Counted from the stretch's first letter, positions 10,001 to 39,224 are shown. The stretch: 64,000 nucleotides of DNA from Candidatus Uhrbacteria bacterium RIFCSPHIGHO2_02_FULL_46_47 (GCA_001790815.1 MGDU01000010.1:2621-66620); one strand, 5' to 3'. The notes: generated from the sequence alone by a model not told the origin. Numbers and translations: made by a program.

Positions 10001-10649
10001 GGTGGTAAACGCGACAATTTCACTTGAAGCCCTTGATGAATCAGCGCTTACGGAAGATCAGCGCGCTTTGCTTGATGAAGCGCAGAAAAAAGATTTGCTT
10101 GCCCAGATGCAGAGCGAACAAGAAGAGGCGCTTTTTACAAGTGGGGTGCGCTACTTGGTAACGCGCAAGAGTACCAAAGGATTTACGATTCTTTTGAGCG
10201 CGGCCGCTCCATCAGATGTGCGATTTAGCTGGATCGCGCTGGCAGTGAAGAACGCACGAACGCACACGAAAGTTGAAGATACACTAACGGACACGAACAC
10301 AAGTAGCGCGGCACTTGATGTGCCGCTGGAGGCACCCTCACCCCCGCAGTCATCCGACGCGGCTACGAACCCTCTCCCTGCGGGAGAGGGAGTAGTTTCT
10401 CCTCCGGATGATGCGGCGGTTCTTGAACCTGCCACAGAGCCCACGCCGGAAGGGCTAAGTCCTGTCGCAGGGCTTAGCCCTGAAACCAGCAACGCCCCAG
10501 AACCTGCACCTGAGCCAGTCGGGTCATCCGACCCGACTGCCCCGTCGGATGACGGGGCAGAACCCGCACCGGAAACCGCACCAGAGGCCACGCCAACCTC
10601 TGATATTTCATCCACAGATAGCATAGTTGCCACAGAGGAAACGCCATGA
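1026..10649 (+). CDS. giant (3207 aa) secreted/surface repeat protein, fibre/adhesin-like
   Basis: N-terminal signal/TM ([14 protein letters not shown]). Thr/Gly/Ala/Asn-rich beta-repeat modules are reiterated ([44 protein letters not shown] x3-4; [36 protein letters not shown] x3+). A C-terminal globular segment ([23 protein letters not shown]...WYNP) is followed by a coiled coil and a Pro/Ala/Glu-rich tail. The strand is uninterrupted for 9.6 kb. Confidence 0.85.
2791..8130 (+). repeat. intragenic long tandem/mosaic repeats (about 2.1-kb period) within the giant gene
   Basis: 2791-4886 vs 4887-6980 align with roughly 80-85% DNA identity, by eye. A third partial copy with extra [23 protein letters not shown] sub-repeats lies at about 7190-8130. 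Confidence 0.75.
9723..9760. repeat. palindromic insertion element, family D (TCACTGAGTGAT..ATCACTCAGTGA), in-frame in the giant gene
   Basis: 14-bp perfect inverted repeat with 11-nt spacer; encodes [14 protein letters not shown] near-identical copy sits at 13290-13328. Confidence 0.75.
10335..10391. repeat. GC-rich palindromic insertion element, family C, in-frame in the giant-gene tail
   Basis: CCCTCACCCCC...CCCTCTCCCTGCGGGAGAGGGAG; encodes [20 protein letters not shown]. Confidence 0.6.
10452..10483. repeat. palindromic insertion element, family B (GGGCTTAGCCC pair), in-frame in the giant-gene tail
   Basis: agggctaagtcct..cagggcttagccctg; encodes [10 protein letters not shown]. Confidence 0.7.
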
Positions 10650-10687
10650 TATCATCATAATGATATTTACTCGCCATCATAAAATAT

Positions 10688-10969
10688 ATGAGTAATACGA
10701 TTGAAGTTACCACAAATGACATAATGGAGTTTTTGAAGGATAACATGGTGACGAAGGAGGATTTACGGGATGAAATTAAGAAGGTAAAAGATGAGATTCT
10801 TTCGCAACTGGCGGTAATGCAAAAAGAACTGGAAGACATTAAAGCGCGCCTTGATGATATTGAAGAAAGATTGAAAGATGACACGGATGCGCTCGCGCGC
10901 GATGTATTGCAATTGAGAGAGCGTGTGGTTGTGCTTGAAAAACAGCTTGGCATTCAAGTATTAATGTAA
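10688..10969 (+). CDS. small coiled-coil protein, hypothetical
   Basis: 93-aa ORF with heptad-like charged repeats (KEDLRDEIKKVKDEILSQLAVMQKELEDIKARLDDIEERLKD). Confidence 0.4.
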   Translation: MSNTIEVTTNDIMEFLKDNMVTKEDLRDEIKKVKDEILSQLAVMQKELEDIKARLDDIEERLKDDTDALARDVLQLRERVVVLEKQLGIQVLM

Positions 10970-11085
10970 TAATTTAAAAATAAGTATACAACTATGGGAA
11001 ATGCAAAACGACTCGCTACTCCTGAACCAACAACCGAGCCAGTTGCCACCGAAACCCAGCCGTGATATTATGACAGTTACTAAAT

Positions 11086-11133
11086 GTAGTCGCAGGTCTT
11101 TAGCCTGCGCGCAACCTAAAGAGTTGCGGCTAC
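11086..11133. repeat. REP/BIME-like element, family E (GTAG..hairpin(TCTTTAG loop)..hairpin(CTAAAGA loop)..CTAC)
   Basis: gtagtcGCAGGtctttagCCTGCgcGCAACctaaagaGTTGCggctac: two stem-loops with the conserved loop and different stems. Confidence 0.7.
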
Positions 11134-11153
11134 CTAATTATAATAAATAAAAT

Positions 11154-11549
11154 ATGGGAAATGCAAAACGTTTTGTTCCCCTAATTCTTTTTTTGCTACT
11201 TGTGGCCTCTGTCGCAGGAAATGCAATGCTGTATAAAAAGCTCAGAGTCCTTAAGCAAAATCCGCAAATGCTTGCACAAGAAGAAAATAAAGCCCTAGTT
11301 GCTAAAGTAGGCCAATTAATTGTTTTGCCTGAAGGCGAGGAGCCAACTGTTGCAACGGTAAATGAGCCGGAAAAACTCAAAGATCAGCCATTTTTCGCAA
11401 ATGCAAAACAAGGCGACAAGGTCTTGATTTACACTAAAGCGAAAAAAGCAATTTTGTATCGCACGGCGGAAAATAAGATTGTTGAAGTCGCGCCGGTAAA
11501 TATTGGTGAACAGCCAGCCGTAAGCGCGCCAGAGGCGCCTAAGGAATAG
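11154..11549 (+). CDS. small membrane-anchored protein, hypothetical
   Basis: 131 aa with N-terminal TM (FVPLILFLLLVASVAG); bracketed by inverted family-E elements. Confidence 0.5.
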   Translation: MGNAKRFVPLILFLLLVASVAGNAMLYKKLRVLKQNPQMLAQEENKALVAKVGQLIVLPEGEEPTVATVNEPEKLKDQPFFANAKQGDKVLIYTKAKKAILYRTAENKIVEVAPVNIGEQPAVSAPEAPKE

Positions 11550-11552
11550 TTT

Positions 11553-11607
11553 GTAGCCGCAACTCTTTAGGTTGCGCAATTGACGCCGGCTAAAGACCGG
11601 CGACTAC
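11553..11607. repeat. REP/BIME-like element, family E (inverted relative to the 11086 copy)
   Basis: gtagccGCAACtctttagGTTGCgcaattgacGCCGGctaaagaCCGGCgactac. Confidence 0.7.
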
Positions 11608-11620
11608 TAGATAACACGAA

Positions 11621-11666
11621 CCCTCACCCTCAATCCCTCTCCCCGAGGGAGAGGAAAGGTGAGGGG
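11621..11666. repeat. GC-rich palindromic element, family C (intergenic copy)
   Basis: ccctcaccctcaatccctctccccgagggagaggaaaggtgagggg: nested inverted repeats. Confidence 0.7.
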
Positions 11667-11718
11667 CACGCAAAGGGTATGGCAAAAACCATGCCTTTTT
11701 GGTATGATAAGGGAATGT

Positions 11719-13026
11719 ATGAAATTACAATGTTCGCGTTCGTTCGTCCTTCTGTTCGTGTTCTTTAGTGTGTTTGCGCCTTTGGCGCAAGCAACGGATT
11801 TTACCAGCACGAATTTTATTTTGCGTGACCCAGTTGTGACAATTGAAGGAGGGTATTCAAGCTCAACAAATTTCCAATTTTTCAGCAGCACTGGTCAGAC
11901 CGCGATCGGAGAGACTACCAGCACAAGCTTTACCCAGCGCTCCGGATTTTTATATTTTCCAACAGCAACAACGCCGGCCATTGCCGCAACAGCCGGAAAT
12001 GGTGAAGTGAGTTTGAGCTGGAGCGCGGCGACTGGCTCGCTTGGTAATGTGACAAATTATCGCGTTGGCACCGCAACAGTTTCCGGCGGACCGTATACTT
12101 ATGAGTCAGTTGGAAATGTTTTGACTTTTACCAAAACAGGACTTACTAATGGCACAACATATTATTTTGTCGTGCAAGCGCAGGCCGCAACTGAAACCGT
12201 GGCAACTTCCGCGCAGGTCTCAGCCACGCCTGCCGCGCCCGCGCCGTCCGGTGGAGGCGGAAGCGCTGTTATTGCAACATCTGCTCCCTCTGGCGCAAGT
12301 GTAATGCTTTCCGGGTGGGCCTATCCATTAAGCAATGTCGTGGTACTCAAAGACGCGCAAGTGGCAATGCGCACCATTGCCGGTCCGGACGCGAAGTTTA
12401 CTGTTGCGGTCTCCGGGCTTTCCGCGGGAACCTATACATTTTCCGCGTACGCGGAAGATAATATAGGGCGGCGTTCACAATTGTTTAATTTCAGTATTTT
12501 TGCAACACAAAATGCCAGTACGCAAATTGGCGGGATATTTATCGCGCCCAGCATTGCAACCGACAAGGTACATGTCCGCGCGGGCGATGATATTGCCATT
12601 TTTGGGCAAAGCGTTCCCAATGGAGAAATCACTATCGCGGTTAATTCGCCGGAAGAGATTTTTGTAAAAACCGCTTCGGATGGAAATGGCGCGTACTTGT
12701 ACAACTTTGATACTGCGCAACTTACGACAGGGGAACATTTTACCAAATCAAAAGCGCGCCTTAACGGCGAAGTAAGCCCGTTTGGGGTCGCGGTGAGGTT
12801 TGGCGTTGGCAAGGAGAATATTTCTTCAGTTGCCGCGCCATGTCCCAAAACGGCCGATCTTAATAACGATTGCAAGGTGAACTTGATTGATTTTTCAATC
12901 GCGGCGTATTGGTATAAACGCGAGCTCAGTACTGCGTTTGCGGAACTGGAAAAAACGCGCTTGAATGGTGATGGGAAAATTGATTTGGTGGATTTTTCTA
13001 TCATGGCGTTTTATTGGACGGGATGA
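11719..13026 (+). CDS. secreted protein with fibronectin type III-like domain and C-terminal dockerin-like double Ca-binding repeat
   Basis: Signal peptide MKLQCSRSFVLLFVFFSVFAPLAQA. Fn3-like GEVSLSWSAATGS..NGTTYYFVVQAQA. C-terminal DLNNDCKVNLIDFSIAAYW / LNGDGKIDLVDFSIMAFYW matches the type I dockerin duplicated-segment pattern. Start chosen at the Met before the signal peptide (ORF track 11659). Confidence 0.6.
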   Translation: MKLQCSRSFVLLFVFFSVFAPLAQATDFTSTNFILRDPVVTIEGGYSSSTNFQFFSSTGQTAIGETTSTSFTQRSGFLYFPTATTPAIAATAGNGEVSLSWSAATGSLGNVTNYRVGTATVSGGPYTYESVGNVLTFTKTGLTNGTTYYFVVQAQAATETVATSAQVSATPAAPAPSGGGGSAVIATSAPSGASVMLSGWAYPLSNVVVLKDAQVAMRTIAGPDAKFTVAVSGLSAGTYTFSAYAEDNIGRRSQLFNFSIFATQNASTQIGGIFIAPSIATDKVHVRAGDDIAIFGQSVPNGEITIAVNSPEEIFVKTASDGNGAYLYNFDTAQLTTGEHFTKSKARLNGEVSPFGVAVRFGVGKENISSVAAPCPKTADLNNDCKVNLIDFSIAAYWYKRELSTAFAELEKTRLNGDGKIDLVDFSIMAFYWTG

Positions 13027-13028
13027 TT

Positions 13029-13056
13029 GAATGTAAAATGAAAAATGTAAAATTAA
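13029..13056 (+). promoter_or_regulatory. family G element: tandem TGTAAAAT extended -10-like boxes overlapping an MKNVKL start codon
   Basis: gaaTGTAAAATgaaaaaTGTAAAATta; copies at 15334, 20651, 39928, 55365. Confidence 0.45.
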
Positions 13057-13940
13057 AAATTATTGTTGTCCTAATGGTGCTCGCGCCTAATTTTGCGTAC
13101 GGAGCGGAGTTTTATTTTGGCACACAATCAAAAGAAATCGGCGTGGGGCAATTGGGAGAGGTCGGAGTGTTTTTAAATACTGATGATGCGCAGATTAACG
13201 CGATTGAAGGAAAAATTATATTTTCCGATAGTGTGACGGTGAAAGAAATTCGCGAAGGCGGTTCAATGATTAGTTTGTGGGTTGAGAATCCGTCACTGAG
13301 TGATGATGACCCTAATCACTCAGTGACGATCATGTTTAGCGGGATTATCCCCGGCGGCTACACCGGTAATCGCGGATATTTGTTCTCGATAATATTTGAA
13401 AAAACTAAAGTCGGCGATGTGAAAATTGAAGTGAATGATGCGCGCGCATTGCTTAATGACGGGCAGGGGACATCGACTGAAGTACGCGTATCGCCACTCA
13501 CGCTTGCGGTCGTAGAAAAAACTGGGGCGCCGGGATATTTGCCGCCTTATGATAATGAGCCGCCGGAATCATTTGTGCCGGAGATTGCGCAAGATCCGAA
13601 TTTATTTGATGGAAAATGGTTTGTTACATTTGCCACGCAGGATAAAATTTCTGGAATTGATCGTTATGAAATCGCATTTGGTTCACTTGGCAATTTCGTT
13701 CGTGTTGAAAGTCCGTTTGTCTTGCCACTCTGGAAACAGCTGGCTGGTGGAATTGTTAGGATTAAAGCCATTGATCGCGCTTCAAACGTTCGCATTGAAA
13801 CTTTACCAATCGCCATACCTTTGCCCTGGTATGAAGATTATCGGATTTGGGGTATAATCCTAGGAGGAGCTATTATTGTATACCTCATATTTCGTCTATG
13901 GAAGCAAAAACAAATAAAACACACAAAAAAACACGAATAG
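13038..13940 (+). CDS. membrane-anchored protein with cohesin-like domain
   Basis: Signal MKNVKLKIIVVLMVLAPNFAYG. Domain GVGQLGEVGVFLNTDDAQINAIEGKIIFSDSVTVKEI...VKIEVNDARALLNDG fits the cohesin beta-sandwich pattern; C-terminal TM (IWGIILGGAIIVYLIF). Contains the in-frame family D palindrome (PSLSDDDPNHSVT). Confidence 0.5.
   Translation: MKNVKLKIIVVLMVLAPNFAYGAEFYFGTQSKEIGVGQLGEVGVFLNTDDAQINAIEGKIIFSDSVTVKEIREGGSMISLWVENPSLSDDDPNHSVTIMFSGIIPGGYTGNRGYLFSIIFEKTKVGDVKIEVNDARALLNDGQGTSTEVRVSPLTLAVVEKTGAPGYLPPYDNEPPESFVPEIAQDPNLFDGKWFVTFATQDKISGIDRYEIAFGSLGNFVRVESPFVLPLWKQLAGGIVRIKAIDRASNVRIETLPIAIPLPWYEDYRIWGIILGGAIIVYLIFRLWKQKQIKHTKKHE
13290..13328. repeat. palindromic insertion element, family D, in-frame in the cohesin-like gene
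   Basis: ccgtcactgagtgat-gatgaccctaa-atcactcagtgacg. Confidence 0.75.
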
Positions 13941-15331
13941 CAACACGAAAGTACACGAAACTTTTAGTGTTTTTTAGTTTATTACTCGTGCCTTTTAGTG
14001 TAGTAAAAGCGGCGCCGGCAAGTTTGTTTTTATCTCCGGCTTCCGGAACATACGGATTGAACCGTACGTTTTCGGTTGATATTGTAGTGGCAACTCCGGG
14101 TGAATCCATGAACGCAGTCCAAGGTACAGCGCGGTTTGACGCGGATCGCTTGGAAGTAGTTTCCTTAAATAAGGACGGATCAATTTTAAGTCTTTGGATT
14201 CAGGAGCCCAGGTTTTCTAATCGTGAGGGGACTGTAACATTTGAAGGGATACGGTTAAATCCCGGTTATCAAGGTACGGCGGGGAAATTGCTTACGGTCG
14301 TATTTAAAACCAGAGCGCTGGGAACCGCGAAACTGAATTTTTCATCCGCGTCAGTTTTGGCAAATGACGGCAAGGCAACCAATATCATTACGGCGCTGGG
14401 AACCGCGGCGTATCAAATCGTAGTGCCGGAGCTTGCGCCGGAGGAAATTGACGCGACAGAAGGCGTTTTGCGCGAAACTAATATTATTTCTCCCACCCAT
14501 AGTAATCCGGAAAAATGGTACGCGCTTCGGGCGGTTCAATTTGAATGGACGTTGCCTTCTTCGATTGATGGCGCATCCTTTGTCGTCAATCAAGAGCCGG
14601 ATACTACTGTGCGAGAAAAATCGTTCGGACGATTATCAAGTTATACCTACGAGGTTGCCGAGGACGGCCTATGGTATTTTCACCTGCGCCTGCGCAATCC
14701 CAAGGGATGGGGACTGACCAGCCATTTCAAATTCCAGGTTGATACCGTTGCGCCCGAGCCATTTACTATCTCGTTTATTGATGGCAGAGAAACTGATCTG
14801 CCCCAGCCGCGGATTTTTTTCTTTGCCAATGATGCAGTTTCGGGAATTGAATATTATGAGGTAAAGGTAGATGAGGGCAGTTTTTTCAGAGTCGCCCCTG
14901 AGGAGCTTATGAGCGCGCCAGTATCTCTTCCCTCGCTTTCTCCCGGCATACATACAGCGTTTGTGTATGCCTATGATCGCGCTGGCAATGTTAGGAGTTC
15001 GGCTGAAGAATTTTCCGTTGTGGCGCCAAAAGCAACGCGTTCGGTTTTGCGCATTGGAAAAGTACAGGTGCCTTATTTTGCGGTTGTCGCAATCTTGATT
15101 GGATTTGCCCTTGCGCTTATTTTCATTTTGTTGCTAGCCTGGTGGCAATTCTTACGTTTTCGCAAAAAACTCAAAAAAGAAGCGCATGAGGTGGAAGAGG
15201 TTCTGCATAAATCTCTTGATCGGATACGCGAGGATGCCGGTAGAAGGTCTGGTAAGATTAAAAAAGACGCTGATGACGCGGAAAAGGCGGTGCGGAAAGA
15301 GATTGAGGATATTGAAAAGGAGGTGAAGTGA
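13898..15331 (+). CDS. membrane-anchored protein with cohesin-like domain (paralog of 13038 gene) and charged C-terminal tail
   Basis: Signal-anchor KLLVFFSLLLVPFSVVKA. Domain FSVDIVVATPGESMNAVQGTARFDADRLEVVSLNKDG..GKLLTVVFKTRALGTAKLNF; C-terminal TM (VVAILIGFALALIFILLLAWW) then a Lys/Glu-rich tail. Start uncertain (ORF track 13847; overlaps the upstream gene). Confidence 0.5.
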   Translation: MEAKTNKTHKKTRIATRKYTKLLVFFSLLLVPFSVVKAAPASLFLSPASGTYGLNRTFSVDIVVATPGESMNAVQGTARFDADRLEVVSLNKDGSILSLWIQEPRFSNREGTVTFEGIRLNPGYQGTAGKLLTVVFKTRALGTAKLNFSSASVLANDGKATNIITALGTAAYQIVVPELAPEEIDATEGVLRETNIISPTHSNPEKWYALRAVQFEWTLPSSIDGASFVVNQEPDTTVREKSFGRLSSYTYEVAEDGLWYFHLRLRNPKGWGLTSHFKFQVDTVAPEPFTISFIDGRETDLPQPRIFFFANDAVSGIEYYEVKVDEGSFFRVAPEELMSAPVSLPSLSPGIHTAFVYAYDRAGNVRSSAEEFSVVAPKATRSVLRIGKVQVPYFAVVAILIGFALALIFILLLAWWQFLRFRKKLKKEAHEVEEVLHKSLDRIREDAGRRSGKIKKDADDAEKAVRKEIEDIEKEVK

Positions 15332-15333
15332 CG

Positions 15334-15367
15334 GAATGTAAAATTAAAAATGTAAAATGAAAAATGA
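15334..15367 (+). promoter_or_regulatory. family G element (tandem TGTAAAAT boxes) at the murF start
   Basis: ggaaTGTAAAATtaaaaaTGTAAAATgaaaaatg; supplies the MKNE.. start. Confidence 0.45.
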
Positions 15368-16763
15368 GTGTATGAAGGAAGTAGTAATATCTATCCTCCA
15401 GGTATTTGCCAAGCTCATTTTGCAAAAATATAAACCCACTATTGTCGCTATAACCGGTTCGGTTGGAAAAACGTCAACCAAAGAGGCAATTTACGCGGTT
15501 CTTGCTTCAAAATTTTCCGTACGCGCGACGCCCAGAAATTATAATAATGAATTGGGCGTACCGCTGACTATAATTGGAGCAGGACTTAGCCCTGAGCGTG
15601 AAAGGGCTAAGTCCTTGTTTCTTGGAAAGTCACCTTTTCGCTGGTGTAGAGTATTTTGCAGAGCATTGTGGCAAATTATCATGCCTGCGCGCTATCCGGC
15701 AATATTAGTGCTGGAGATGGGAGCAGATCGGCCAAAAGACATACAAAAACTCGTAAAACTTGCTCCGCCAAAAATTGGGGTGGTAACTGCTATTGCGCCA
15801 GTGCATACTGAATTTTTTGGCGATGTGGAAAAAGTGGCGCGTGAAAAAAGGCGTCTTGTTGAAGCAGTGCCAAAGCAGGGGACAGTGGTATTAAATATAG
15901 ATGATGAAATGGTGCGTGAGTTTGCAAAGCATGCAAAAAGTACGGTTGTTGGTTATGGAATTGAGAGCAATGAGGCAGAAGTAAGGGCAGTTGAGGTGCA
16001 TGATGATATTGAAATAGGGGGAAGCCGAACCTCCGATGCTTCGGAGGTTCGGCTTCCAGACATTGAATTAGGCAGTATTCATTTCAAAATTATAACTGAC
16101 GGCTCTGCCGTGCCCGTGCATTTGCCTAGTGTGTTGGGCCACGCCCACGTGTACGCGGCGCTTGCCGCTTGCGCAGTGGGACGCGCGTTTGGAATGCACA
16201 TGGTTGAAATTTCCCGTGCGCTGTTAAATTATGCTCCGCCTCCCGGCCGCATGCGAATTATTGCTGGCATTAAAAATACGGTGATCATTGACGATACTTA
16301 CAATGCTTCTCCGCGGGCAACTGTAGCCGCCCTTGAAACACTTGGAGGGCTAAGCCCTTTTTCAAAATCAGGGCTTAGCCCTGTGCGTTACGCCGTGCTT
16401 GGCGATATGCTGGAGTTAGGGCCTTATACAGAATCCGGCCATCGCGAAGTGGGCCGCGTTGCGGCGCAAAATGCCGATGTAGTTATTGGCGTGGGTGTCA
16501 GTGCGCAATGGCTTGTTGATGAGGCAAATAAAACCCGTCTAAATTTACCCTCTGCTGAAGGAAATTTTGTCGGGCATTTGCATACCCATGACGAAGCCGA
16601 ACATTTTTTGCAGGAGCGAATACGGCCGGGCGATGTGATACTGATCAAAGGATCTCAAAGCATGCGCATGGAGAAGCTCGTCAAAGGTCTAATGGCTGAA
16701 CCTTTGCGCGCGGATGAATTATTATGCCGACAAGAAAAAGAATGGTTGACACGACAACACTAA
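15357..16763 (+). CDS. murF: Mur ligase family protein, MurF-like (UDP-MurNAc-pentapeptide synthetase)
   Basis: P-loop ITGSVGKTSTKE and MurF-type NNELGVPLT motif. The usual N-terminal domain is missing, and it carries two in-frame family B palindromes (GLSPERERAKSL; GGLSPFSKSGLSP). Confidence 0.65.
   Translation: MKNECMKEVVISILQVFAKLILQKYKPTIVAITGSVGKTSTKEAIYAVLASKFSVRATPRNYNNELGVPLTIIGAGLSPERERAKSLFLGKSPFRWCRVFCRALWQIIMPARYPAILVLEMGADRPKDIQKLVKLAPPKIGVVTAIAPVHTEFFGDVEKVAREKRRLVEAVPKQGTVVLNIDDEMVREFAKHAKSTVVGYGIESNEAEVRAVEVHDDIEIGGSRTSDASEVRLPDIELGSIHFKIITDGSAVPVHLPSVLGHAHVYAALAACAVGRAFGMHMVEISRALLNYAPPPGRMRIIAGIKNTVIIDDTYNASPRATVAALETLGGLSPFSKSGLSPVRYAVLGDMLELGPYTESGHREVGRVAAQNADVVIGVGVSAQWLVDEANKTRLNLPSAEGNFVGHLHTHDEAEHFLQERIRPGDVILIKGSQSMRMEKLVKGLMAEPLRADELLCRQEKEWLTRQH
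15581..15615. repeat. family B palindrome in-frame in murF
   Basis: aggacttagccct-gagcgtgaa-agggctaagtcct (12-bp perfect inverted repeat). Confidence 0.75.
16347..16383. repeat. family B palindrome pair in-frame in murF
   Basis: gggctaagccc..agggcttagccctg. Confidence 0.75.
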
Positions 16764-18129: not shown

Positions 18130-18140
18130 ATGAGGAGACC

Positions 18141-19055: not shown

Positions 19056-19607
19056 ATGTTAGGGGGAATACAGCAGTTAGTCTCAAGCATCAATTGGTCT
19101 CGGCCAAGCTGGGATTTATTCATTTTTTTGTTTTTCTTTATTATCGCGTTTTTGTACGGTTTTTCTTTGGGACGCGACCGTATTTTAGTGATTTTAGTTT
19201 CCATCTATATTGCCCTGGCGGTAGTTCCCGCCTTTCCTTATCTTGATCGTCTACATCTTGATGTGTCAGTGCAGGGTTTTGCATTCCGCGTAACCTCGTT
19301 TTACATTGTATTCGTAGTTTTGTTTTTCCTGTTATCTCGCTCCGCGCTTGTGAATCTCTTGGGCGCGCAAAACACAGGAGTGGGAGATCGTTTAATTGAG
19401 GTTATTATTTTTAGTATTTTGCACGTTGGACTTTTAGTTTCTGTTACGCTCTCTTTTTTACCTCAAAATGCCCTGATGCAGCTTTCTACCGGCACGCGCG
19501 AAGTATTTACCTCTGATATGGGCAAGTTTTTGTGGCTTGTCGCGCCGGTAATCGCAATGATTATATCTTCACACCATCGATGGCGAAGAGGAGGATTCCA
19601 GGGCTAA
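19056..19607 (+). CDS. integral membrane protein (4-5 TM), possibly CvpA-like
   Basis: Multiple hydrophobic helices; the stop codon lies inside a family B palindrome. Confidence 0.45.
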   Translation: MLGGIQQLVSSINWSRPSWDLFIFLFFFIIAFLYGFSLGRDRILVILVSIYIALAVVPAFPYLDRLHLDVSVQGFAFRVTSFYIVFVVLFFLLSRSALVNLLGAQNTGVGDRLIEVIIFSILHVGLLVSVTLSFLPQNALMQLSTGTREVFTSDMGKFLWLVAPVIAMIISSHHRWRRGGFQG

Positions 19608-19636
19608 GCCCTGTGGCATCTTAGGGCTTAGCCCCG
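19599..19636. repeat. family B palindrome pair (intergenic, overlapping the stop of the 19056 gene)
   Basis: cagggctaagccctg-tggcatct-tagggcttagccccg. Confidence 0.75.
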
Positions 19637-20644: not shown

Positions 20645-20650
20645 TATGAC

Positions 20651-20687
20651 AAATGTAAAATTCAAAATGCAAAATGTAAAATTATTG
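20651..20687 (+). promoter_or_regulatory. family G element (tandem TGTAAAAT boxes) at the start of paralog 2
   Basis: aaaTGTAAAATtcaaaatgcaaaaTGTAAAATtattg; gives the MQNVKLLLL start. Confidence 0.45.
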
Positions 20688-22268
20688 TTACTGTTTGGAG
20701 CATTTTTAATTTCAGCGTCTTCAGCGCAGGCTCAAGTCAGTTATTGCGCGCCGGGAACAACTGCCTGCTCGCAAGGATGTACACTTGGCGTTAATTGTAC
20801 CAGTTGCTGGAGCGCGCCGACATGTACGATTACTGGGCAAACCGCGCCCACTTGTGGATCATGTCAGTGTCCATCTGGCCAGATTGTTTGTGGAAGCGCG
20901 TGTCAGCTTCCGGCCGCAACTTCTGGCCAACCGTGCGATGCTGGGCAGGGGGCTGGATCAGGAACGTTTGATAGTTGTGGAGTATGTCAGGCAAATGCGC
21001 CGCGCTATGCTACCCGGCAATACTCATTTCCGGGCACTGCGGAAGACGGATATATTAATATCAAAGGAAATCTTCGCACTTCTTCTGATATGTATCTTAC
21101 TTCTGGCAAAGCAATTCGGGTTGACGGAAGCGGTGCAACACCTACTATATTGAATATCGGAAATTTTACCGGCACAGGCGGGGTAAATGTGACTATCCTT
21201 GGCACACTTGCCCTTGATGCGCTTACCGCTGATCGCGTAACTGGAGATGAGCTTTGCATTGGCGTGGATTGCCGCACCAGTTGGCCTGTGGCAGAGGGAG
21301 GGGGACTAACTGGAAGCGGCACTGCCAACCAAGTGGCATTTTTCACCAGCGCATCAAACCTTGATTCTGATGCTAATCTTTTTTGGGATAACATAAATAA
21401 GCGGCTTGGCATTGGCACTGCCACTACCCCAGGCAGTACGCTTACGGTTCGACGCTCTGCCGCCGGAGTCGCGTTTGCGGTGCGCAATACCGGTGATAAC
21501 GCTAACACATTCGCGATTACTGACACCGGATTACTTACTGTGGGCGTTGTGCCGTGGGCGCAGTTACGCGACATTCCTTCCGCATGCGCATCTGGCAAGT
21601 TTGTTATAGATATTGAAAGCGGTACTTGCGCTTTGCCAAGCTCCGCGGCTGAATCCGACCCAGTTTACCTGGCATGGTATAATAGCGCTAACCCCGGTAT
21701 CTCCAATTTAAAAGTTGTCGGTGGCGGAGCTTTTGGCGGGTATACGCCGGATGCAACATGGAAGATAACCACGCCAAACATTTACATTGGTGATCCGGCA
21801 GTAGGTGGTACAATCATCGGCGCAGGTTCTGGCCAAAGCGCCGGAGATATTACCACGGATGGAAATCTTGTAGTAAAAGGTTGTTTTGGGGCAATTTATC
21901 GCGGGGGAACATTGAGTACATATCAAGGAAATGTAAGTTATACAGATCCGGTATTGGGAACTTTGAACGGCTATAAAGCCGTGAATGAAATTTGCAAAGA
22001 TTCTGCGGGTATATTAAGTGGAAGCCATGTCTGCAGTGTGCAAGAAATTTTGGAAAGCATCAAATGCGGCGCAGCACTTCCGGGAACTGGCATTGTATGG
22101 GTGCAAGATGGCCCTCCTGGATTTACGGCGAACGTAAACGATTGTATTGGATGGACTTCCGCGGCTGGCGACTCTTATGGACGATACTGGGCGTTTGACG
22201 CAAATGGCGGCCAAGCATGGGTGCAACCTTGCAATGGTTTAGCCCGCGCGTTTGCTTGTTGCAAATAA
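20667..22268 (+). CDS. secreted Cys-rich fibre-like protein, paralog 2
   Basis: Signal MQNVKLLLLFGAFLISASSAQA and Cys-rich module (CAPGTTACSQGCTLGVNCTSCW..). Fibre-like repeats (IKGNLRTSSDMYLTSGKAIRVDGSG; IGTATTPGSTLTV) and conserved C-terminal domain ending FACCK. Confidence 0.65.
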   Translation: MQNVKLLLLFGAFLISASSAQAQVSYCAPGTTACSQGCTLGVNCTSCWSAPTCTITGQTAPTCGSCQCPSGQIVCGSACQLPAATSGQPCDAGQGAGSGTFDSCGVCQANAPRYATRQYSFPGTAEDGYINIKGNLRTSSDMYLTSGKAIRVDGSGATPTILNIGNFTGTGGVNVTILGTLALDALTADRVTGDELCIGVDCRTSWPVAEGGGLTGSGTANQVAFFTSASNLDSDANLFWDNINKRLGIGTATTPGSTLTVRRSAAGVAFAVRNTGDNANTFAITDTGLLTVGVVPWAQLRDIPSACASGKFVIDIESGTCALPSSAAESDPVYLAWYNSANPGISNLKVVGGGAFGGYTPDATWKITTPNIYIGDPAVGGTIIGAGSGQSAGDITTDGNLVVKGCFGAIYRGGTLSTYQGNVSYTDPVLGTLNGYKAVNEICKDSAGILSGSHVCSVQEILESIKCGAALPGTGIVWVQDGPPGFTANVNDCIGWTSAAGDSYGRYWAFDANGGQAWVQPCNGLARAFACCK

Positions 22269-27725: not shown

Positions 27726-29381
27726 ATGTTCAAGCTTTATAATTCCTATACCAAGCGCAAGGAGGGGTTTCGGCCCGCCCATCAAGTGGGCGAGGCTCGC
27801 CTCCGGCGGCCGCTAAAGGATAAGCAGGTGGGGATGTATAATTGCGGGCCCACGGTCTATGACTATGTGCATATTGGAAATTTGCGCGCGTTTTTGTTTG
27901 CCGATATTTTGCGGCGGTATTTGGAATATCGTAGATACAAAGTGAAACAGGTGATGAATATTACTGATGTGGGGCATATGGTTGCCGATGGTGAAAATGG
28001 TGAGGATAAAATGTCCGTGGCAATGCGTCGAGAGGGTAAAGGGCCGGCGGAAGTCGCGCGTTTTTACGAAAAAGCATTTTTTCAAGACATCAATACGCTC
28101 GGTATCAAGCCAGCCTGGAAATATCCGCGTGCCACTGAGCATATTCCGGAGATGATCGCGCTAATTAAAAAATTACTCAAACGCGGGCATGCGTATTTGG
28201 TGGCGGAATCTGCACCACCCCTAACCCCTCCTCCACAAGGAGGGGAAACGAATCAATTTCCTCCCCTGCCCGAGGGGAGGTTAGGAGGGGTGGGAGCTTC
28301 TGTTTATTACGACTTATCTACTTTTCCAAACTACGGCAAACTTTCCGGAAACAAAGTAGATGATCTCATTCCCGGAGCACGAGTGGATGTTATTCATGAA
28401 AAACGCAATCCGTATGATTTCGCGCTGTGGATTTATAAACCGGAGCATGTTTTAAAATGGAGTGCGCCATGGGGCGCGGGATATCCGGGCTGGCATTTAG
28501 AGTGTTCTGCAATGTCCATGAAATATCTTGGGCAAACGCTTGATATCCACACAGGCGGCGAAGATAATAAGTTCCCGCATCATGAGTGCGAGATCGCGCA
28601 GTCAGAGGGCGCAACCGGCAAGCCATTTGCGCGCTATTGGTTGCATGTCAAACATTTACTGGTTGATGGCAAAAAAATGTCAAAATCGCTGGGAAATTTT
28701 TATACTCTGAAAGATTTACTGCAAAAAGGATATTCAGCGCGCGCGATTCGTTATGCGCTTATTTCAACGCACTATCGGGAAACTCTGAATTTTACTTTGG
28801 AAAGCGTGAAGGCGGCGGAGAATGCGTTGCAAAGGGTGGATGAGGTGGTGGATAGGTTGCATCCCCCCTCACCCCAACCCTCTCCCGCACGGGGAGAGGG
28901 AGTAAAGCGCATTCCCTCGCCCTTCATGGGAGAGGGGCAGGGTGAGGGTTTTGCGCGATTGGTCGCACGCACCCGCAAGGATTTTATTGCCGCCATGGAT
29001 GATGATTTAAATGTTTCAAAGGCGCTGGCAGTGATGTTTGAATTGGTGAAAAAAATCAATAAAGTAATGGATAGACCCTCACCGGTCCTTCGGACACCCT
29101 CTCCCGAAGGGGTCGAAGACGGGCCGAGCGAGCGCAGGCCCCGGGGAGGGGTGGGTGAGGGGTTGAAATTGCTGATGGAATTTGATGAGGTGCTGGGATT
29201 GGGGATTGGAAAAAGTGAAAAGCGCACTGTGCCAGAAGAAATTATGAAATTAGTGCAAGAGCGTGAAAAAGCGCGCAATAAAAAAGATTTTGGCCGTGCT
29301 GATGCGTTGCGTAAAGAAATTGCAGAACATGGCTATATTTTGGAAGACACAGCGCAAGGTCCGAGGGTGAAATTAAAATAG
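27726..29381 (+). CDS. cysS: cysteine--tRNA ligase (CysRS) with three in-frame palindromic insertions
   Basis: N-terminal [16 protein letters not shown] (class I HIGH), KMSKS present (KKMSKSLGN). At 551 aa vs about 460 typical, the excess comes from three family C elements encoding P/G/E-rich loops. Confidence 0.9.
28214..28295. repeat. family C palindromic element in-frame in cysS (1 of 3)
   Basis: caccaccctaacccctcctccacaaggagggg...cctcccctgcccgaggggaggttaggaggggtggga; encodes [28 protein letters not shown]. Confidence 0.8.
28863..28948. repeat. family C palindromic element in-frame in cysS (2 of 3)
   Basis: cccccctcaccccaaccctctcccgcacggggagaggg...gggagaggggcagggtgaggg; encodes [22 protein letters not shown]. 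Confidence 0.8.
29077..29162. repeat. family C palindromic element in-frame in cysS (3 of 3)
   Basis: ccctcaccggtccttcggacaccctctcccgaagggg...ccccggggaggggtgggtgagggg. Confidence 0.8.
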
Positions 29382-31066: not shown

Positions 31067-31175
31067 GTAGTCGCCGCTCTTTAGGCGGCGCGCAGGCTAA
31101 AGACCTGCGGCTACATATGGCACAAGTAGTCGCCGCTCTTTAGGCGGCGCGCAGGCTAAAGACCTGCGGCTACAT
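31067..31175. repeat. two tandem 60-bp copies of the family E REP/BIME-like element
   Basis: gtagtcGCCGCtctttagGCGGCgcGCAGGctaaagaCCTGCggctacatatggcacaag x2; the second copy ends 2 nt before the ATG at 31176. Confidence 0.8.
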
Positions 31176-31652
31176 ATGGCACAAGAAGAAAAACCAAAAA
31201 TAGTCCCAACTGAACAACCGCCGGAAATAGAAAAAATTCCTGAAGCGCCAAAAGAGGCGCCTGTCCTTGAGGTTCCAATGGAACGTCCGCCTGCGGAAAA
31301 AGAATTGCCGGCAAAAGCGCCGCCGCCAATTGCGCCGGCAGTGTTGCCGCCGGCAGTACCAGCAGATCCAGTGCTTAAGCAAATTGAAACAATCCTTGCG
31401 GAGGATTTGGAAGAGGTTTATGCGCAACTTCCGCCAGAGCTTAAGCCAAAGTTTAAGGTCAAGGGCGAGGAAGTCGCGAGCGCAATTCGCACTATGATGG
31501 CAACTGCCAAGATTAAAGCGCGCAAAGTATTAAAGCTCATTGCGCAGTGGCTCAAAATTATTCCGGGTGTGAACAAATTTTTTCTGGAACAAGAAGCCGC
31601 GATCAAAGCGCAGAAAATTATGGCTGTCGCGCAGGAGGAGAAGGAAGTATGA
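31176..31652 (+). CDS. Pro/Ala/Glu/Lys-rich protein, hypothetical
   Basis: 158 aa; a low-complexity PEAPKE/PPAV N-terminal half, then a helical C-terminal half. Confidence 0.5.
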   Translation: MAQEEKPKIVPTEQPPEIEKIPEAPKEAPVLEVPMERPPAEKELPAKAPPPIAPAVLPPAVPADPVLKQIETILAEDLEEVYAQLPPELKPKFKVKGEEVASAIRTMMATAKIKARKVLKLIAQWLKIIPGVNKFFLEQEAAIKAQKIMAVAQEEKEV

Positions 31653-31732
31653 TGCCAATATACGAATTTCATGCCAATCTACAAATTGCAAATTCGTATT
31701 TGTAGATTTGAATAAGATTTGTAGATTTGCAT
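31652..31732. repeat. family F intergenic element (ATGCCAATCTACGAATTTCATGCCAATCTACAAAT...ATTTGTAGATTTGAATAAGATTTGTAGATTTGCAT)
   Basis: Contains four TTTGTAGATT/AATCTACAAA half-sites in inverted arrangement. Begins at the stop of the upstream gene and ends 8 nt before the next ATG; copies at 40973 and 48320. Confidence 0.75.
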
Positions 31733-31739
31733 TACATTT

Positions 31740-34998: not shown

Positions 34999-34999
34999 A

Positions 35000-35620: not shown

Positions 35621-35642
35621 TTTGTGCGAAAATCTCCAAAAA

Positions 35643-35687
35643 TGTGATTGTCAAATACTCACGATCGTGATAAACTGACAATCAGTG
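35643..35687. promoter_or_regulatory. nested palindrome TGATTGTCA-N21-TGACAATCA with central TCACGATCGTGA (direct repeat of the 34957 site)
   Basis: tgattgtcaaatactcacgatcgtgataaactgacaatca. Confidence 0.55.
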
Positions 35688-35732
35688 CCGCATGTGATTT
35701 GCGAGTTTTTGTGACAGGATAAAAAACTTTCT

Positions 35733-35768
35733 AAATTAAAAGAAGCGCGTCCTGCGAAGCAGGCGCGC
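35733..35768 (-). terminator. rho-independent terminator (minus strand) for the AIRS-family gene
   Basis: Minus-strand GGCGCGCCTGC-ttc-GCAGGACGCGC followed by TTCTTTTAATTT. Confidence 0.5.
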
Positions 35769-35780
35769 CTAGAAACCTTC

Positions 35781-36896
35781 TTAACGAACGCCCAAGGTTG
35801 AACCGTCGTACTCCAGTCCCTTGGGTTGGATGACCACTTTCTTTTCTTCGCCGCGCTTTTCGATGTGGCCGGCGCGCATGGCTTTGAAATCGCACTGCTC
35901 GGCAAGTGTGATTACCTGTTCCACATCGGCCGTTGGTACATAAAGCGCAAAACCCGCGCCCATGTTGAAGTTGCCGTACATCTCTGTGTCGTTTACCGGA
36001 CCGCACTCCTGGATGAAGCGAAAGATCGGCTGGGGTTCCGGGATTTTTTCCAGCAGATACACGAACGGTTCGCGCGCGCGCATGAGCTTGCGCCAGCCGT
36101 GTCCGGTGATGTTCACCGTGTAGTGTATACTCACGCCATGGTTGAGGCAATCCTCAACAAGTGCGACGTAGATGTATGTCGGATCCAGCAGTGCCTCACC
36201 GTATGTCCGCCCATCAGGAAGCTGAGTGAGATATCCTTCGGGCAAATTGTCGGCAATCGTCCGCGCCATCGTGAGGCCGTTCGCGTGAATCCCGGAACTC
36301 TCGACAAGAACGATCGCGTCGCCGTGTTGGATTTTGCTCGGTGTGATGAGTCGTTCTTTAGGCTGCACCAGGCCGATCGCCGAACCGGAAAGTACCACTG
36401 CTTCGGGTACCACTACACCCTTGAGTGTTGGTGTTTCACCGCCGCCCCAGACACAGCGGGCGAGTATGCACGCTTGTTTCCATCCATGGATTAGATCACT
36501 ACAACGTCGCGTGTCTTGGAACCAATCGGACGCGCCAACCGCAAGATGCATCGCCACCGAAAGCGGCAGAGCACCAAGCGTGATCATATCGTTTACGATC
36601 ATCGCCACAGTGTCCTGTGCAATCTGGTCGTAATAGGACTTGCCGGTGAGTTTGTACATCGCGTCGGCAACGAGATTCTTCGTACCCAGCCCTTCCTCAA
36701 CATGGGCAAGGAAACGGTCACCGGCGTCGATGAGGTACGCGCTCTCACCGCGACTCATTAGAACTTCCGATAAACCGAGTCGAGCGACGTTGATTGCTGT
36801 TTCCATCGCGGCAAGTTGTGCCTCGCGCTTGAACGGATCCATGGCATCGTAGTCCACACCTGTACCGGCGTAGGTTATTGCCTGTTTCTCGCTCAT
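35781..36896 (-). CDS. AIR synthase-related (PurM-like) ATP-binding protein
   Basis: N-terminal YAGTGVDYDAMDP resembles the PurM N-terminus (YKDAGVDIDAGN); two-domain PurM/ThiL/HypE-family layout; 371 aa. Confidence 0.55.
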   Translation of the reverse strand: MSEKQAITYAGTGVDYDAMDPFKREAQLAAMETAINVARLGLSEVLMSRGESAYLIDAGDRFLAHVEEGLGTKNLVADAMYKLTGKSYYDQIAQDTVAMIVNDMITLGALPLSVAMHLAVGASDWFQDTRRCSDLIHGWKQACILARCVWGGGETPTLKGVVVPEAVVLSGSAIGLVQPKERLITPSKIQHGDAIVLVESSGIHANGLTMARTIADNLPEGYLTQLPDGRTYGEALLDPTYIYVALVEDCLNHGVSIHYTVNITGHGWRKLMRAREPFVYLLEKIPEPQPIFRFIQECGPVNDTEMYGNFNMGAGFALYVPTADVEQVITLAEQCDFKAMRAGHIEKRGEEKKVVIQPKGLEYDGSTLGVR

Positions 36897-37037
36897 AGTC
36901 GCACTCTTTCTCCTACTTGTGCGTGGATTTGAGTCAATGATCTACTAGCCAGCCCCATGATATTAACATAATTCCTTACAGTTGCAAAATGCGTGGTGCC
37001 GTGGTACGCTGTAAATAGACAAATACCCATACAAAAT

Positions 37038-37574
37038 ATGCCAAACAAAAATGATGAGCTTGCCTTACAGCTTGCGGAATTTCGAAAAAAAATTGATGCG
37101 GCGCAGAAGATGATGGAGCAGGGCGATGTAGAGCAAGCTGAGGCATTCATAGCTGATTTGCGCGCGCACAGTCATGCCACGCAACCCACCCCAGTGCCGG
37201 ATGGGAGTCGTATAATTGAAGGCGTGTTTGACGGACAGCGCATGATTGGCGCGGACGGAAAACAGTATTTAGTGCCGCCAAATTATGCGTCGAAGTCAAA
37301 GTTGGTGGAGGGTGATATGATGAAGCTCTCTATAACTTTGCAAGGCGCGTTTATTTATAAACAAATCGGACCTATTGAGCGCAAACGAGTGGCATGCACG
37401 CTCACCAAAGATGGCGAGGGATTGTGGCATGCAACTGATGGCGTGCATGAATGGCGCCTTTTGACTGCGGCAGTAACATTTTTTAAAGGCAAAGCCGGAG
37501 ATGAGGTAATTATTTTCTTGCCAGGCGATGCTCCCTCAAAATGGGCAGCAGTGGAAAACATTATTGCAAAATAA
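37038..37574 (+). CDS. hypothetical protein
   Basis: 178-aa ORF; start moved to the Met after the promoter-like region (ORF track 36993). Confidence 0.45.
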   Translation: MPNKNDELALQLAEFRKKIDAAQKMMEQGDVEQAEAFIADLRAHSHATQPTPVPDGSRIIEGVFDGQRMIGADGKQYLVPPNYASKSKLVEGDMMKLSITLQGAFIYKQIGPIERKRVACTLTKDGEGLWHATDGVHEWRLLTAAVTFFKGKAGDEVIIFLPGDAPSKWAAVENIIAK

Positions 37575-37577
37575 TCT

Positions 37578-39224
37578 ATGGCATTAGCACTCTATCGCAA
37601 ATATCGTCCCCAAACCTTTCGGGAAATTACCAATCAGAATCATGTCAAAATAACTCTTGAGCGAGAGGTTGCGCAAGAAAAGGTAGCACACGCCTACCTT
37701 TTTTCAGGTCCGCGAGGAACGGGAAAGACTTCGCTCGCGCGCATTTTGGCAAAAGCAGTGAATTGTCAGGGCTTAGCCCTGGACGCAAAAGGGCTAAGCC
37801 CTAGACAAAATGGTGAGCCGTGCAATAAATGCGAGGCATGCAATACTATTACGGAGGGACGTGCGCTGGATGTTATTGAAATTGACGCCGCTTCATATAC
37901 CGGCGTAGATAATGTGCGCGAAACCATTGTTGAAACGGCGAAATTCGCGCCCTCGCGCCTTAAGTGCAAGGTATTCATTATTGATGAGGTGCATATGCTC
38001 TCAAATGCGGCCTGGAACGCGCTTTTGAAAATAATGGAGGAGCCTCCCGCGCATGTTATTTTTGTACTGGCCACAACCGAGGTGCATAAAGTTCCGGCAA
38101 CGATTCTCTCACGCTGTCAGCGATTTGATTTTCATCGTATTCGCCCCTCTGACATGGTTGCGCGGTTGAAATTTATCGCGGCGCAGGAAAAAGTAAAAGT
38201 TGCAACGCCAGTGCTTCAATCTGTGGCGCGATTTGCCGAAGGGTGCGTACGCGACGCTGAAAGTTTGCTGGAGCAATTATTTTCATTGGGAGAAAAGGAA
38301 ATTACCGAAGATGTGGCATCACTGGTACTTCCGCGCACTTCCATGCCGCTCGCGCTGGATTTACTGGAGTGTATAAGCGCGGGTGAGGTTAGACGCGCGC
38401 TTTTGCTTATCGGGTCGCTTACGGATCAAGGGATAGATCTTCCGCAATTTTCCAGCGACTTGCTGGAATTGTTGCGCAATGTGCTTCTGATTAAAAATGG
38501 CGGCAAGGACATGGTGGTTTCCGCGACAGACGCGTCCACATTTGAGCGTTTGGAAAAAATTAGCGACGGCTGGACAATGCCGCGGATACTCTTCATCGTT
38601 GATACATTTGTAAAAGCCAAACAAGGACTCAAGGGCGCAACCATTCCGCAATTGCCATTGGAGATTGCTGTAGTGGAGGCGGGGGAGGAAGGGCGCGCCG
38701 GTCAGCCGGAAGATCTGCCTCGAACACGCGTCGGCGCAACATTTACCCTGTACGATGACTCATCTCGCCGCGCTCCCGCTCGCCCCGCCTCAACGACTCC
38801 ATTAAAAGAGACCCAGATTTCGGCGGGGCTGCGCGAGGGTTCTCGGCAGTCCTCCCAGCCGCCCGTCGCGCCAAAAGTGAAGAGGAATGAAAATAACAAT
38901 GCGGTATTATCTTTGCAAGATCTCCAGGCCAAATGGCCGGAGGTGTTAAAGCGCGCGCAAGAAGAGAATCATTCACTGCCATTTTTGCTTTCCACAAGTG
39001 AACCAATGCGGATGGAAGGCGATACCATTCATGTTGGCGTGCAATATCCGTTTCATTGCGATAAATTAAATGAGCCAAAATCCCGTGCGGTACTTGAAAA
39101 GATTGTAAGTGATGTATATGCCATGCCACTGCGCATCCAAGGGGTAATTTCCGCCCGGCCGTCTGAAAAAGATAATTCAGTGGAGGATGTTTTAAAAACA
39201 CTTGGCGGGCGACTTGTTGGATAA
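37578..39224 (+). CDS. dnaX: DNA polymerase III subunit gamma/tau
   Basis: YRPQTFREI, GPRGTGKTS Walker A, zinc module CNKCEACN, IIDEVHMLS Walker B, SRCQRF sensor; carries one in-frame family B palindrome (QGLALDAKGLSPRQ). Confidence 0.9.
   Translation: MALALYRKYRPQTFREITNQNHVKITLEREVAQEKVAHAYLFSGPRGTGKTSLARILAKAVNCQGLALDAKGLSPRQNGEPCNKCEACNTITEGRALDVIEIDAASYTGVDNVRETIVETAKFAPSRLKCKVFIIDEVHMLSNAAWNALLKIMEEPPAHVIFVLATTEVHKVPATILSRCQRFDFHRIRPSDMVARLKFIAAQEKVKVATPVLQSVARFAEGCVRDAESLLEQLFSLGEKEITEDVASLVLPRTSMPLALDLLECISAGEVRRALLLIGSLTDQGIDLPQFSSDLLELLRNVLLIKNGGKDMVVSATDASTFERLEKISDGWTMPRILFIVDTFVKAKQGLKGATIPQLPLEIAVVEAGEEGRAGQPEDLPRTRVGATFTLYDDSSRRAPARPASTTPLKETQISAGLREGSRQSSQPPVAPKVKRNENNNAVLSLQDLQAKWPEVLKRAQEENHSLPFLLSTSEPMRMEGDTIHVGVQYPFHCDKLNEPKSRAVLEKIVSDVYAMPLRIQGVISARPSEKDNSVEDVLKTLGGRLVG
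37767..37801. repeat. family B palindrome pair in-frame in dnaX
   Basis: cagggcttagccctg-gacgcaaa-agggctaagccct. Confidence 0.8.

Follow-up and report, generated by a model that had tools for sequence, protein, structure and literature searches.

In-frame palindromic doublets in a Candidatus Uhrbacteria genome: a probable REPIN- or TIR-repeat-like family of a RAYT/TIRYT-type transposase

A stretch of 64,000 nucleotides from Candidatus Uhrbacteria bacterium RIFCSPHIGHO2_02_FULL_46_47 (GCA_001790815.1, MGDU01000010.1:2621-66620), referred to below as the window, contains five inverted doublets of a 13-nt near-palindrome, AGGRCTWAGYCCT, termed family B. Four of the five doublets lie in frame within genes, among them murF and dnaX. 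The host belongs to the candidate phyla radiation (CPR), and a Y1 transposase bracketed by the same doublets, A3B21_03010, is encoded elsewhere in its genome. Taken together, the evidence makes it probable that family B is a repeat family like the REPINs, which are doublets of repetitive extragenic palindromic (REP) sequences, or like terminal inverted repeats (TIR), and that it belongs to a transposase of the RAYT (REP-associated tyrosine transposase) or TIRYT type.

Sequence and folding of the family B repeat

The family B doublets are located at 10451-10481, 15581-15615, 16346-16382, 19600-19635 and 37768-37802, with total lengths of 31-37 nt and with 5, 9, 11, 10 and 9 nt, in that order, between their arms. 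Scanning of both strands of the window with GGGCTTAGCCC, allowing one mismatch, returned 19 strand-matches where 0.72 were expected, and AGGACTTAGCCCT, allowing two mismatches, gave 17 matches against an expected 0.67. Every real match in these scans falls into the five pairs, and no solo arm was found in the window. The arms, given as 12 bp in an earlier note on this DNA, measure 13 nt; each is self-complementary around an odd centre, AGGGC-TWA-GCCCT, with a 5-bp stem and a TWA triloop. The central W, which discriminates a direct from an inverted arrangement of the arms, is always complementary between paired arms, in the five window copies as well as in the wider set of 25 core copies that takes in related loci.

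All five doublets fold as single-stranded DNA (ssDNA) on both strands, with stems of 12-14 bp, energies of -11.5 to -17.8 kcal/mol and folding z-scores of -3.7 to -7.4. In the first of the two murF doublets (15581-15615), a G to A change in one arm is accompanied by a compensating C to T change in the other, which favours a long hairpin between the arms over two mini-hairpins. The short palindrome, inverted pairing and over-representation by which REPINs are recognised are all found in family B.

Two independent assemblies of the organism were compared with the window. ENA ERZ4903070 (99.93% identical) contains four of the family B copies and Logan SRR2090162 (100% identical) contains three, all of them unchanged, while the dnaX copy at 37768-37802 lies outside the coverage of both. 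An assembly artefact is thereby excluded for the copies covered.

Reading frames and host proteins

The short form of the doublet, AGGGCTAAGTCCT-gtcgc-AGGGCTTAGCCCT (10451-10481), lies in frame near the C-terminus of a giant open reading frame (ORF) of 3207 residues (1026-10649, plus strand), which holds this copy and one copy of another family, C, described below. The murF gene (15357-16763, plus strand) carries two copies. The copy at site 1, AGGACTTAGCCCT-gagcgtgaa-AGGGCTAAGTCCT, encodes GLSPERERAKS, and that at site 2 (16346-16382), located at the start of the C-terminal domain, encodes GLSPFSKSGLSP (GLSP-FSKS-GLSP). In dnaX (37578-39224, plus strand), the gene for DNA polymerase III gamma/tau with a product identical to OGL81209.1, the doublet at 37768-37802 is placed between Cys1 and Cys2 of the zinc module and encodes QGLALDAKGLSP (QGLAL-DAK-GLSP). 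The remaining copy (19600-19635) stands at the end of an ORF at 19056-19607, which is also a 183-aa gene call in an independent assembly, and the centre of its first arm supplies the TAA stop codon (19605-19607). The in-frame palindromes that the earlier note had reported in the giant protein, murF (twice) and dnaX are thus borne out by the reading frames of the four coding doublets, as is its intergenic copy overlapping a stop codon.

The MurF and DnaX proteins were aligned with their orthologs. All 18 MurF orthologs examined (49-67% identity) are without both palindrome-encoded segments. At site 1 the orthologs read IIGA-xAP-GxSP and the window protein reads IIGA-GLSPERERAKSLFL-GKSP, a gain of 11 residues; at site 2 the window protein is longer by about 4 residues, in a loop of variable length. 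A third in-frame palindrome of other sequence (GGAAGCCGAACCTCCGATG/CTTCGGAGGTTCGGCTTCC, 16020-16057) coincides with a third MurF insertion, and the three palindromes together explain most of the extra length of the protein, 468 aa against about 430. The gene matches Pfam Mur_ligase_M and Mur_ligase_C as well as TIGR01143, the last at 286.5 bits where the cutoff is 288.6, and the Mur_ligase_M match begins only after the first insertion. The score below the cutoff and the late start of the match indicate that palindromic inserts measurably lower family-model scores, an effect that annotators should expect from such insertions.

In DnaX, the gap between the first two cysteines of the zinc module is 16 residues in the window protein, compared with mostly 6-9 in fifty close and distant orthologs and 7 in E. 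coli gamma/tau. The two closest orthologs (76-77% identity) have gaps of 8 and 14, so that the exact boundaries of the insertion cannot be drawn. Reconstruction of the empty sites from ortholog DNA (62-64% identity for murF, 76-77% for dnaX) yielded neither boundaries nor a target sequence, the loops being too variable in length. Judged by these alignments, the family B segments of MurF and DnaX are insertions relative to the orthologs, not conserved motifs. Conservation of GLSP in orthologs lacking the palindrome, which the earlier note had named as the observation that would speak against it, is not seen, the orthologs being without the segments.

The earlier note had also stated that each copy produces Gly-Leu-Ser-Pro. 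GLSP does occur at least once in each coding copy of the window, though some arms encode something else; the peptide is a by-product of stop avoidance. The centre of an arm is TAG or TAA, in one frame each, and GLSP corresponds to the sole frame that is open in both arm types; it recurs because of this, together with the length of the spacer. Family B DNA is in fact read in three frames, giving GLSP, GLAL and RAKS or RAKP, and the alternatives occur exactly where frame arithmetic permits them, as in the murF site 1 peptide GLSP-ERE-RAKS, where the second arm is read as RAKS. A conserved GLSP protein motif is ruled out by the ortholog alignments and by this use of three frames.

A cognate Y1 transposase

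Family B doublets also occur at a metagenome locus outside the window, numbered L128/L152-L154 among the related loci examined (L128 below), where two complete doublets 670 bp apart bracket an ORF of 226 aa and one further arm lies inside the gene. The two flanking doublets are perfect 35-bp inverted copies of each other, with the reverse-complement spacers gtcctcaaa and tttgaggac. The encoded protein is identical to A3B21_03010 of Candidatus Uhrbacteria bacterium RIFCSPLOWO2_01_FULL_47_24, and doublets flank this gene on both sides in three assemblies, the NCBI metagenome-assembled genome (MAG) included. Proteins of the window are identical to A3B21_02740 through A3B21_02970 of the same RIFCSPLOWO2_01_FULL_47_24 assembly, which indicates that the window's own genome encodes the transposase.

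A3B21_03010 matches the Pfam family Y1_Tnp (IS200-like, PF01797) at 30.2 bits, above the cutoff of 23, and contains the HUH motif PNHYHFL and the tyrosine motif RYIHLNP. PNH(F/Y)H and RYIHLN are invariant across 42 transposase homologs. A single-sequence search of solved structures with the transposase gave no match. An AlphaFold2 model (pLDDT 89.4) found as its best match in the PDB the entry 4ER8, E. coli TnpA_REP with a REP hairpin (E 1.9e-5, TM 0.71), with the ISDra2 and IS608 transposases ranking after it. Judging by its motifs and predicted fold, A3B21_03010 is a Y1 (HUH) tyrosine transposase, probably of the RAYT/TIRYT type.

Co-variation of transposases and palindromes

Paired palindromes are not confined to family B. 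The window contains 32 short hairpins whose stems reach 11 bp or more, compared with about 4 in shuffled sequence, and 9 double palindromes, compared with none, which belong to at least four families. The suggestion of the earlier note that the phenomenon is general in this genome is therefore well founded. Its further claim, that two independent repeat families insert in frame, stands as far as sequence is concerned. In kind, however, families A and B are not independent, having one architecture and a C-T-N-A-G arm centre (found in family C as well), and each accompanying its own paralogous Y1 transposase.

Family A, GGAAGCTSAGCTTCC, is represented in the window by doublets at 356-396, 909-949 and 62245-62279 and by a single arm at 173-190. 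Its cognate is a paralog of A3B21_03010 with 42.6% identity, the RAYT-like Y1 transposase A3B21_02740 (194-904, plus strand). The single arm, CGGAAGCTCAGCCTCCG, lies just upstream of the start codon of this gene, the doublet at 356-396 lies in frame in a variable loop of the encoded transposase, and that at 909-949 follows directly downstream of the stop codon. The doublet at 62245-62279 is in frame in an ORF at 61740-63830.

Orthologs of A3B21_03010 with 64% identity occupy the matching syntenic slot in two other species, making three species in total, with the gene order large protein, transposase, S8 peptidase, epimerase, glycosyltransferases. The doublet that flanks these orthologs is a different one built on the same plan, GTGGCTAGGCCAC-9 nt-GTGGCCTAGCCAC. 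Family B tracks its transposase allele and is missing from relatives that bear the orthologous gene. Three further transposase lineages each have their own palindromes. Overall, palindromes border the gene on one side or on both in six distinct transposase lineages, and in five of these six they form a distinct family of their own.

An in-frame palindrome is also found within the transposase genes themselves, in one length-variable loop (approximately residues 55-75), in all eight RAYT-like lineages for which DNA was examined. In four of them, namely the window gene, L128, L159 and L076, this palindrome is of the family found outside the gene, and the remaining four have a different sequence. 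The loop palindromes are located at 356-396 in the window, at 313-330 in L128, at 10318-10361 in L155, at 6170-6194 in L159, at 6157-6194 in L160, at 2690-2729 in L074 and, on the reverse strand, at gene positions 175-212 in L076. They may reflect local hopping, or they may be a conserved home copy or a regulatory hairpin. Rather tentatively, the Y1 transposase and its repeat in this CPR clade could form a tighter unit than the classical REPIN-RAYT pair, with the loop palindrome serving as a home copy or autoregulatory hairpin and with the C-T-N-A-G recognition taking place inside the hairpin loop. In that case, lineage-specific peptide insertions in CPR proteins would regularly arise from these elements.

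Family B beyond the window

A metagenome scan returned at least about 18 further distinct copies of family B with exact arms, on contigs of 44-50% G+C. Nearly all of them, at least 16, lie inside long ORFs. Among the matches listed, the host genes encode a P-type ATPase, a XerC/D-type recombinase, ArgRS, two glycosyltransferases, a CCA-adding/poly(A) polymerase, RecG, GalT, FolD and UvrA. The metagenome contigs that carry family B also contain families A, C and D. The spacer GTCGC/GCGAC is found at three unrelated sites (10451-10481, L062 and L070), with the near-variant GCGGC in L063, and the spacer GAGCGTGA(A) at two (murF site 1 and L070). Such spacer sub-families at unrelated sites fit the copying of whole elements.

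No family B copy occurs in about 115 kb of DNA from related Uhrbacteria and Parcubacteria, and the 21-kb locus of a MurF relative with 64% identity contains no double palindromes. A scan of species-representative genomes, among which the source genome was not found, returned mostly unrelated hairpins (Prevotella, Streptomyces and others), together with a GC-rich relative of family B within an AT-rich ORF of one Patescibacteria MAG. At gathering thresholds, Rfam matched only a tRNA.

Two side observations concern a family B doublet and a separate repeat with a similar core. At 4919-4976 of L062, a family B doublet is located between GACCAAGT and ACTTGGTC, which are similar to the arms of a GTGACCAAGTCAC-type palindrome inside the L155 transposase gene; this arrangement suggests that one element is nested inside another. 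Separately, GGGCTTAGCCCCGTCGCGACGGGGCTAAGCCC recurs with conserved flanks on Prevotellaceae contigs (L001, L003, L004, L007, L013, L017 and L032, from Alloprevotella and Prevotella MAGs), in contexts of 60-66% G+C, and by sequence it has the core GGGCTWAGCCC in common with family B.

Proposed mechanism and alternative explanations

In the proposed mechanism, family B doublets would be miniature non-autonomous hairpin elements with A3B21_03010 as their cognate enzyme. By analogy with TnpA_REP and the enzymes of IS200/IS605 insertion sequences, the transposase would recognise the folded hairpin on ssDNA, then cleave and religate it, leaving no target-site duplication. Genes would make up most of the landing sites in a compact genome, and the surviving copies would be those that keep the frame (a net length that is a multiple of three), avoid TAA and TAG, and lie in tolerant surface loops of essential genes. 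This survival filter would yield the recurring GLSP, GLAL and RAKP peptides. We infer that A3B21_03010 mobilises the doublets, probably by an ssDNA route; the inserted peptides are presumably translated and tolerated. The in-frame state of the copies is best explained by selection.

E. coli TnpA_REP binds a folded REP on ssDNA and cleaves at a CT dinucleotide, with a 5' GTAG as guide. Since the elements described here are without GTAG, their recognition must differ from that of TnpA_REP. The conserved CT...AG at the arm centre is, speculatively, a candidate recognition feature; a C-T-N-A-G centre could place both the CT cleavage site and an AG guide within the hairpin loop, unlike the external GTAG guide.

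Relatives of IS200/IS605 insert without target duplication. The flanks of 23 family B copies were compared, and 18 of the 23 have no target-site duplication, while the remaining copies match by 1-2 nt, as chance allows. Apart from a -1 position that is mostly C, the flanks of these copies show no conserved target and no conservation farther away. The lack of target-site duplication fits the Y1/HUH route and argues against a miniature inverted-repeat transposable element (MITE) moved by a DDE transposase. Target duplication of the IS5/PIF type at TNA was rejected, the flanking TNA triplets being inverted and not direct. Excision footprints of transposons and circle junctions of insertion sequences were rejected as unnecessary given the association with a transposase.

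Several observations weigh against attributing family B to this transposase. The analysis turned up no transposition event, no empty site and no presence/absence polymorphism, and where the three assemblies of the species cover a site, they agree completely. Next to the arms, the 5' GTAG (or CGTC) tag required by E. coli TnpA_REP is missing, and the copies are mostly intragenic, unlike classical REPs. The sole NCBIfam match of A3B21_03010, NF047646 (REP-associated tyrosine transposase), reaches 33.6 bits and stays below the cutoff of 80, and the sequence-profile match of the transposase to 4ER8 is weak (E 0.15). The spacers vary much more than the arms, so that copying of the whole unit would require selection on the arms or several sub-families. 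Finally, the net insertions of +33, about +12 and about +24-30 nt differ from the element lengths of 35, 37 and 35 nt.

Among the alternative explanations, the one that survives best is that family B consists of selfish palindromes like the Rickettsia palindromic elements (RPEs), spread without a Y1 transposase by recombination, repair-templated copying or another enzyme, and that transposase genes are simply frequent landing sites. This is unlikely, though it has a precedent in the in-frame palindromic insertions of Rickettsia, for which no transposase is known. Mobilisation has not been observed here, the elements have no GTAG guide, and the transposase genes themselves contain in-frame palindromes, as if hit like other genes. 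What such a process would leave unaccounted for is the specificity of the association: the palindromes flank six transposase lineages and form an own family in five of them, the L128 flanks are perfect 35-bp inverted terminal repeats, and family B follows its transposase allele, being absent from relatives that have the orthologous gene.

A still less probable explanation is that the arms are cis-elements selected by the host, either sites for a dimeric protein (a restriction-modification system recognising GCTNAGC or CTNAG, a nucleoid protein, a DNA-uptake signal) or structured mRNA elements. It would account for arms that are perfectly conserved while the spacers drift and for the C-T-N-A-G common to the arm centres of families A, B and C, and host roles have been reported for REPs elsewhere. 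Sites arising by point mutation, however, would not add 4-11 residues relative to orthologs, and the arms always occur as inverted pairs, never alone, unlike uptake or restriction sites. Moreover, several unrelated sequences have one architecture, each with its own transposase paralog, and the doublets have neither a T-tract nor a match to an Rfam family. DNA-uptake sequences were rejected specifically because the arms are never solitary, and restriction-site artefacts were rejected as well. A conserved GLSP protein motif, chance or an assembly artefact can be given practically no weight: GLSP is present in every coding copy, but the orthologs are without the segment, three reading frames are used, less than one match is expected by chance and two independent assemblies are identical at the covered copies. 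Assignment of family B to a RAYT/TIRYT-type transposase is therefore preferred.

Other repeats in the window

Family C, GTCACTSAGTGAT, has two doublets in the window. The first, GTCACTGAGTGAT...ATCACTCAGTGAC (9725-9760), is in frame in the giant ORF, and the second (13291-13328) is in frame in an ORF at 13014-13940. The giant ORF has no Pfam match, and between 2742 and 8128 it contains tandem repeat units of about 2.1 kb with 66-89% identity.

Eleven classical GTAG-tagged REPs of the form GTAG-YCGCNGN-TCTTTAG-NCNGCG, with compensatory changes in their stems, were found where none is expected by chance. They are located at 11086-11133, 11553-11607, 31067-31173, 46458-46481 and 57642-57708, all of them intergenic and most of them arranged as head-to-head doublets. 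These REPs coexist with the mostly intragenic C-T-N-A-G families, and their cognate transposase is not in the window.

A nested-palindrome repeat of approximately 70-95 nt, CCCTCACCC..CCCTCTCCC-loop-GGGAGAGGG..GGGTGAGGG, lies within ORFs at 28866-28949, 44915-45000, 45756-45826 and 47554-47624, with shorter relatives at 11636-11669, 41304-41356 and 60959-61019. It is found with 80-100% identity at unrelated positions on other contigs of the clade and resembles in-frame elements of RPE size. An intergenic repeat of 82 nt with inverted units of the ATGCCAATCTACRAAT type is present at 31652-31733, 40973-41054 and 48320-48401, and copies in L113 and L141 have up to 98% identity. Lastly, an A/T-rich motif composed of TGTAAAATG/AAAAATG repeats stands at gene starts or just upstream of them (13024-13066, 15329-15371, 20646-20688, 39922-39964 and 55360-55416) and may be a signal of the promoter or of the translation-initiation region.

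Comparison with known systems

The systems closest to family B are the REP/REPIN-RAYT systems, such as E. coli TnpA_REP with its BIMEs and the REPINs of Pseudomonas (Bertels & Rainey 2011; Messing et al. 2012; Bertels et al. 2017). Both have inverted doublets that form one long hairpin, dispersed and over-represented units, and a cognate Y1/HUH gene that is itself flanked by units. In both, the syntenic position of the transposase is conserved between species, which suggests vertical inheritance, and several paralogs occur per genome, each with its own repeat family. Target-site duplication is missing in both, and 4ER8 is the best structural match of A3B21_03010. The signature described for RAYT-REPIN systems, a transposase inherited vertically at a single locus with abundant repeats of its own on its flanks, is matched by the pattern seen here, as is that of TIRtrons. 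Family B differs from REPIN-RAYT systems in having no 5' GTAG tag, in its 13-nt units centred on C-T-N-A-G, in the location of most copies in genes and in frame, and in its host, a CPR bacterium with a small genome. A3B21_03010, for its part, scores under the curated RAYT cutoff and has about 75 extra C-terminal residues. Classical REPs are extragenic and have a GTAG/CGTC foot; family B has no such foot, and four of its five window copies are in ORFs.

In the TIRtrons of Di Nocera et al. (2013; PMC3733652), a RAYT-like gene lies between terminal inverted repeats unrelated to GTAG REPs; some of these repeats are self-complementary or doubly palindromic, and they make up families. Here too, the gene is bracketed by perfect inverted non-GTAG repeats that are doubly palindromic and belong to a moderately abundant dispersed family, often as dimers. 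The TIRtron families described there come from Proteobacteria and Acidobacteria, and their common GGGGWSAS motif is not seen here. Two features of family B, the predominance of intragenic copies and the copy inside the transposase gene, are not known to have been reported for TIRtrons.

In-frame palindromic insertions have classic examples in the RPEs (Ogata et al. 2000), and REPs inside genes, REP dimers among them, have already been documented by Di Nocera et al. (2013), who note that many fall in genes for replication and repair and that some provide stop codons. Family B resembles these elements in its in-frame palindromes in housekeeping genes, including replication and repair genes (uvrA; dnaX here), in encoding short peptides at tolerant positions and in the copies that supply stop codons to neighbouring ORFs. 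RPEs are approximately 100-150 bp long or are CGTC-tagged, and have no associated transposase, whereas family B measures 31-37 nt, is without CGTC and has an identifiable cognate Y1 transposase. With IS200/IS605, family B shares an HUH/Y1 transposase that would recognise ssDNA hairpins, a recognition predicted here by analogy, and the lack of target-site duplication. In contrast to a multi-copy insertion sequence, the transposase was seen at a single syntenic locus for each family, the dispersed family B units are gene-free, and no conserved tetranucleotide target was detected among them.

A search for literature linking RAYTs with CPR, Patescibacteria or Uhrbacteria found no paper in the library used, which is incomplete. 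In kind, family B belongs to selfish DNA that is already known, but its host and its location are unusual. It is set apart by its occurrence in a CPR bacterium, its untagged 13-nt unit, its intragenic predominance, the divergent clade of its transposase and the in-frame palindrome within the transposase gene itself. It would extend REPIN/RAYT-type systems to the candidate phyla radiation, to repeats without GTAG, and to a genome in which most copies lie in essential genes (murF and dnaX here; argS, recG, uvrA and folD on related contigs). Protein-coding palindromes have been known in frame since Rickettsia without an enzyme, and here they are tied to an identifiable Y1 transposase with the cognate repeat at both ends of its gene. 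They provide one concrete origin for the additional loops that CPR proteins often show, and the mechanism is testable with a 226-residue protein and 35-nt oligonucleotides.

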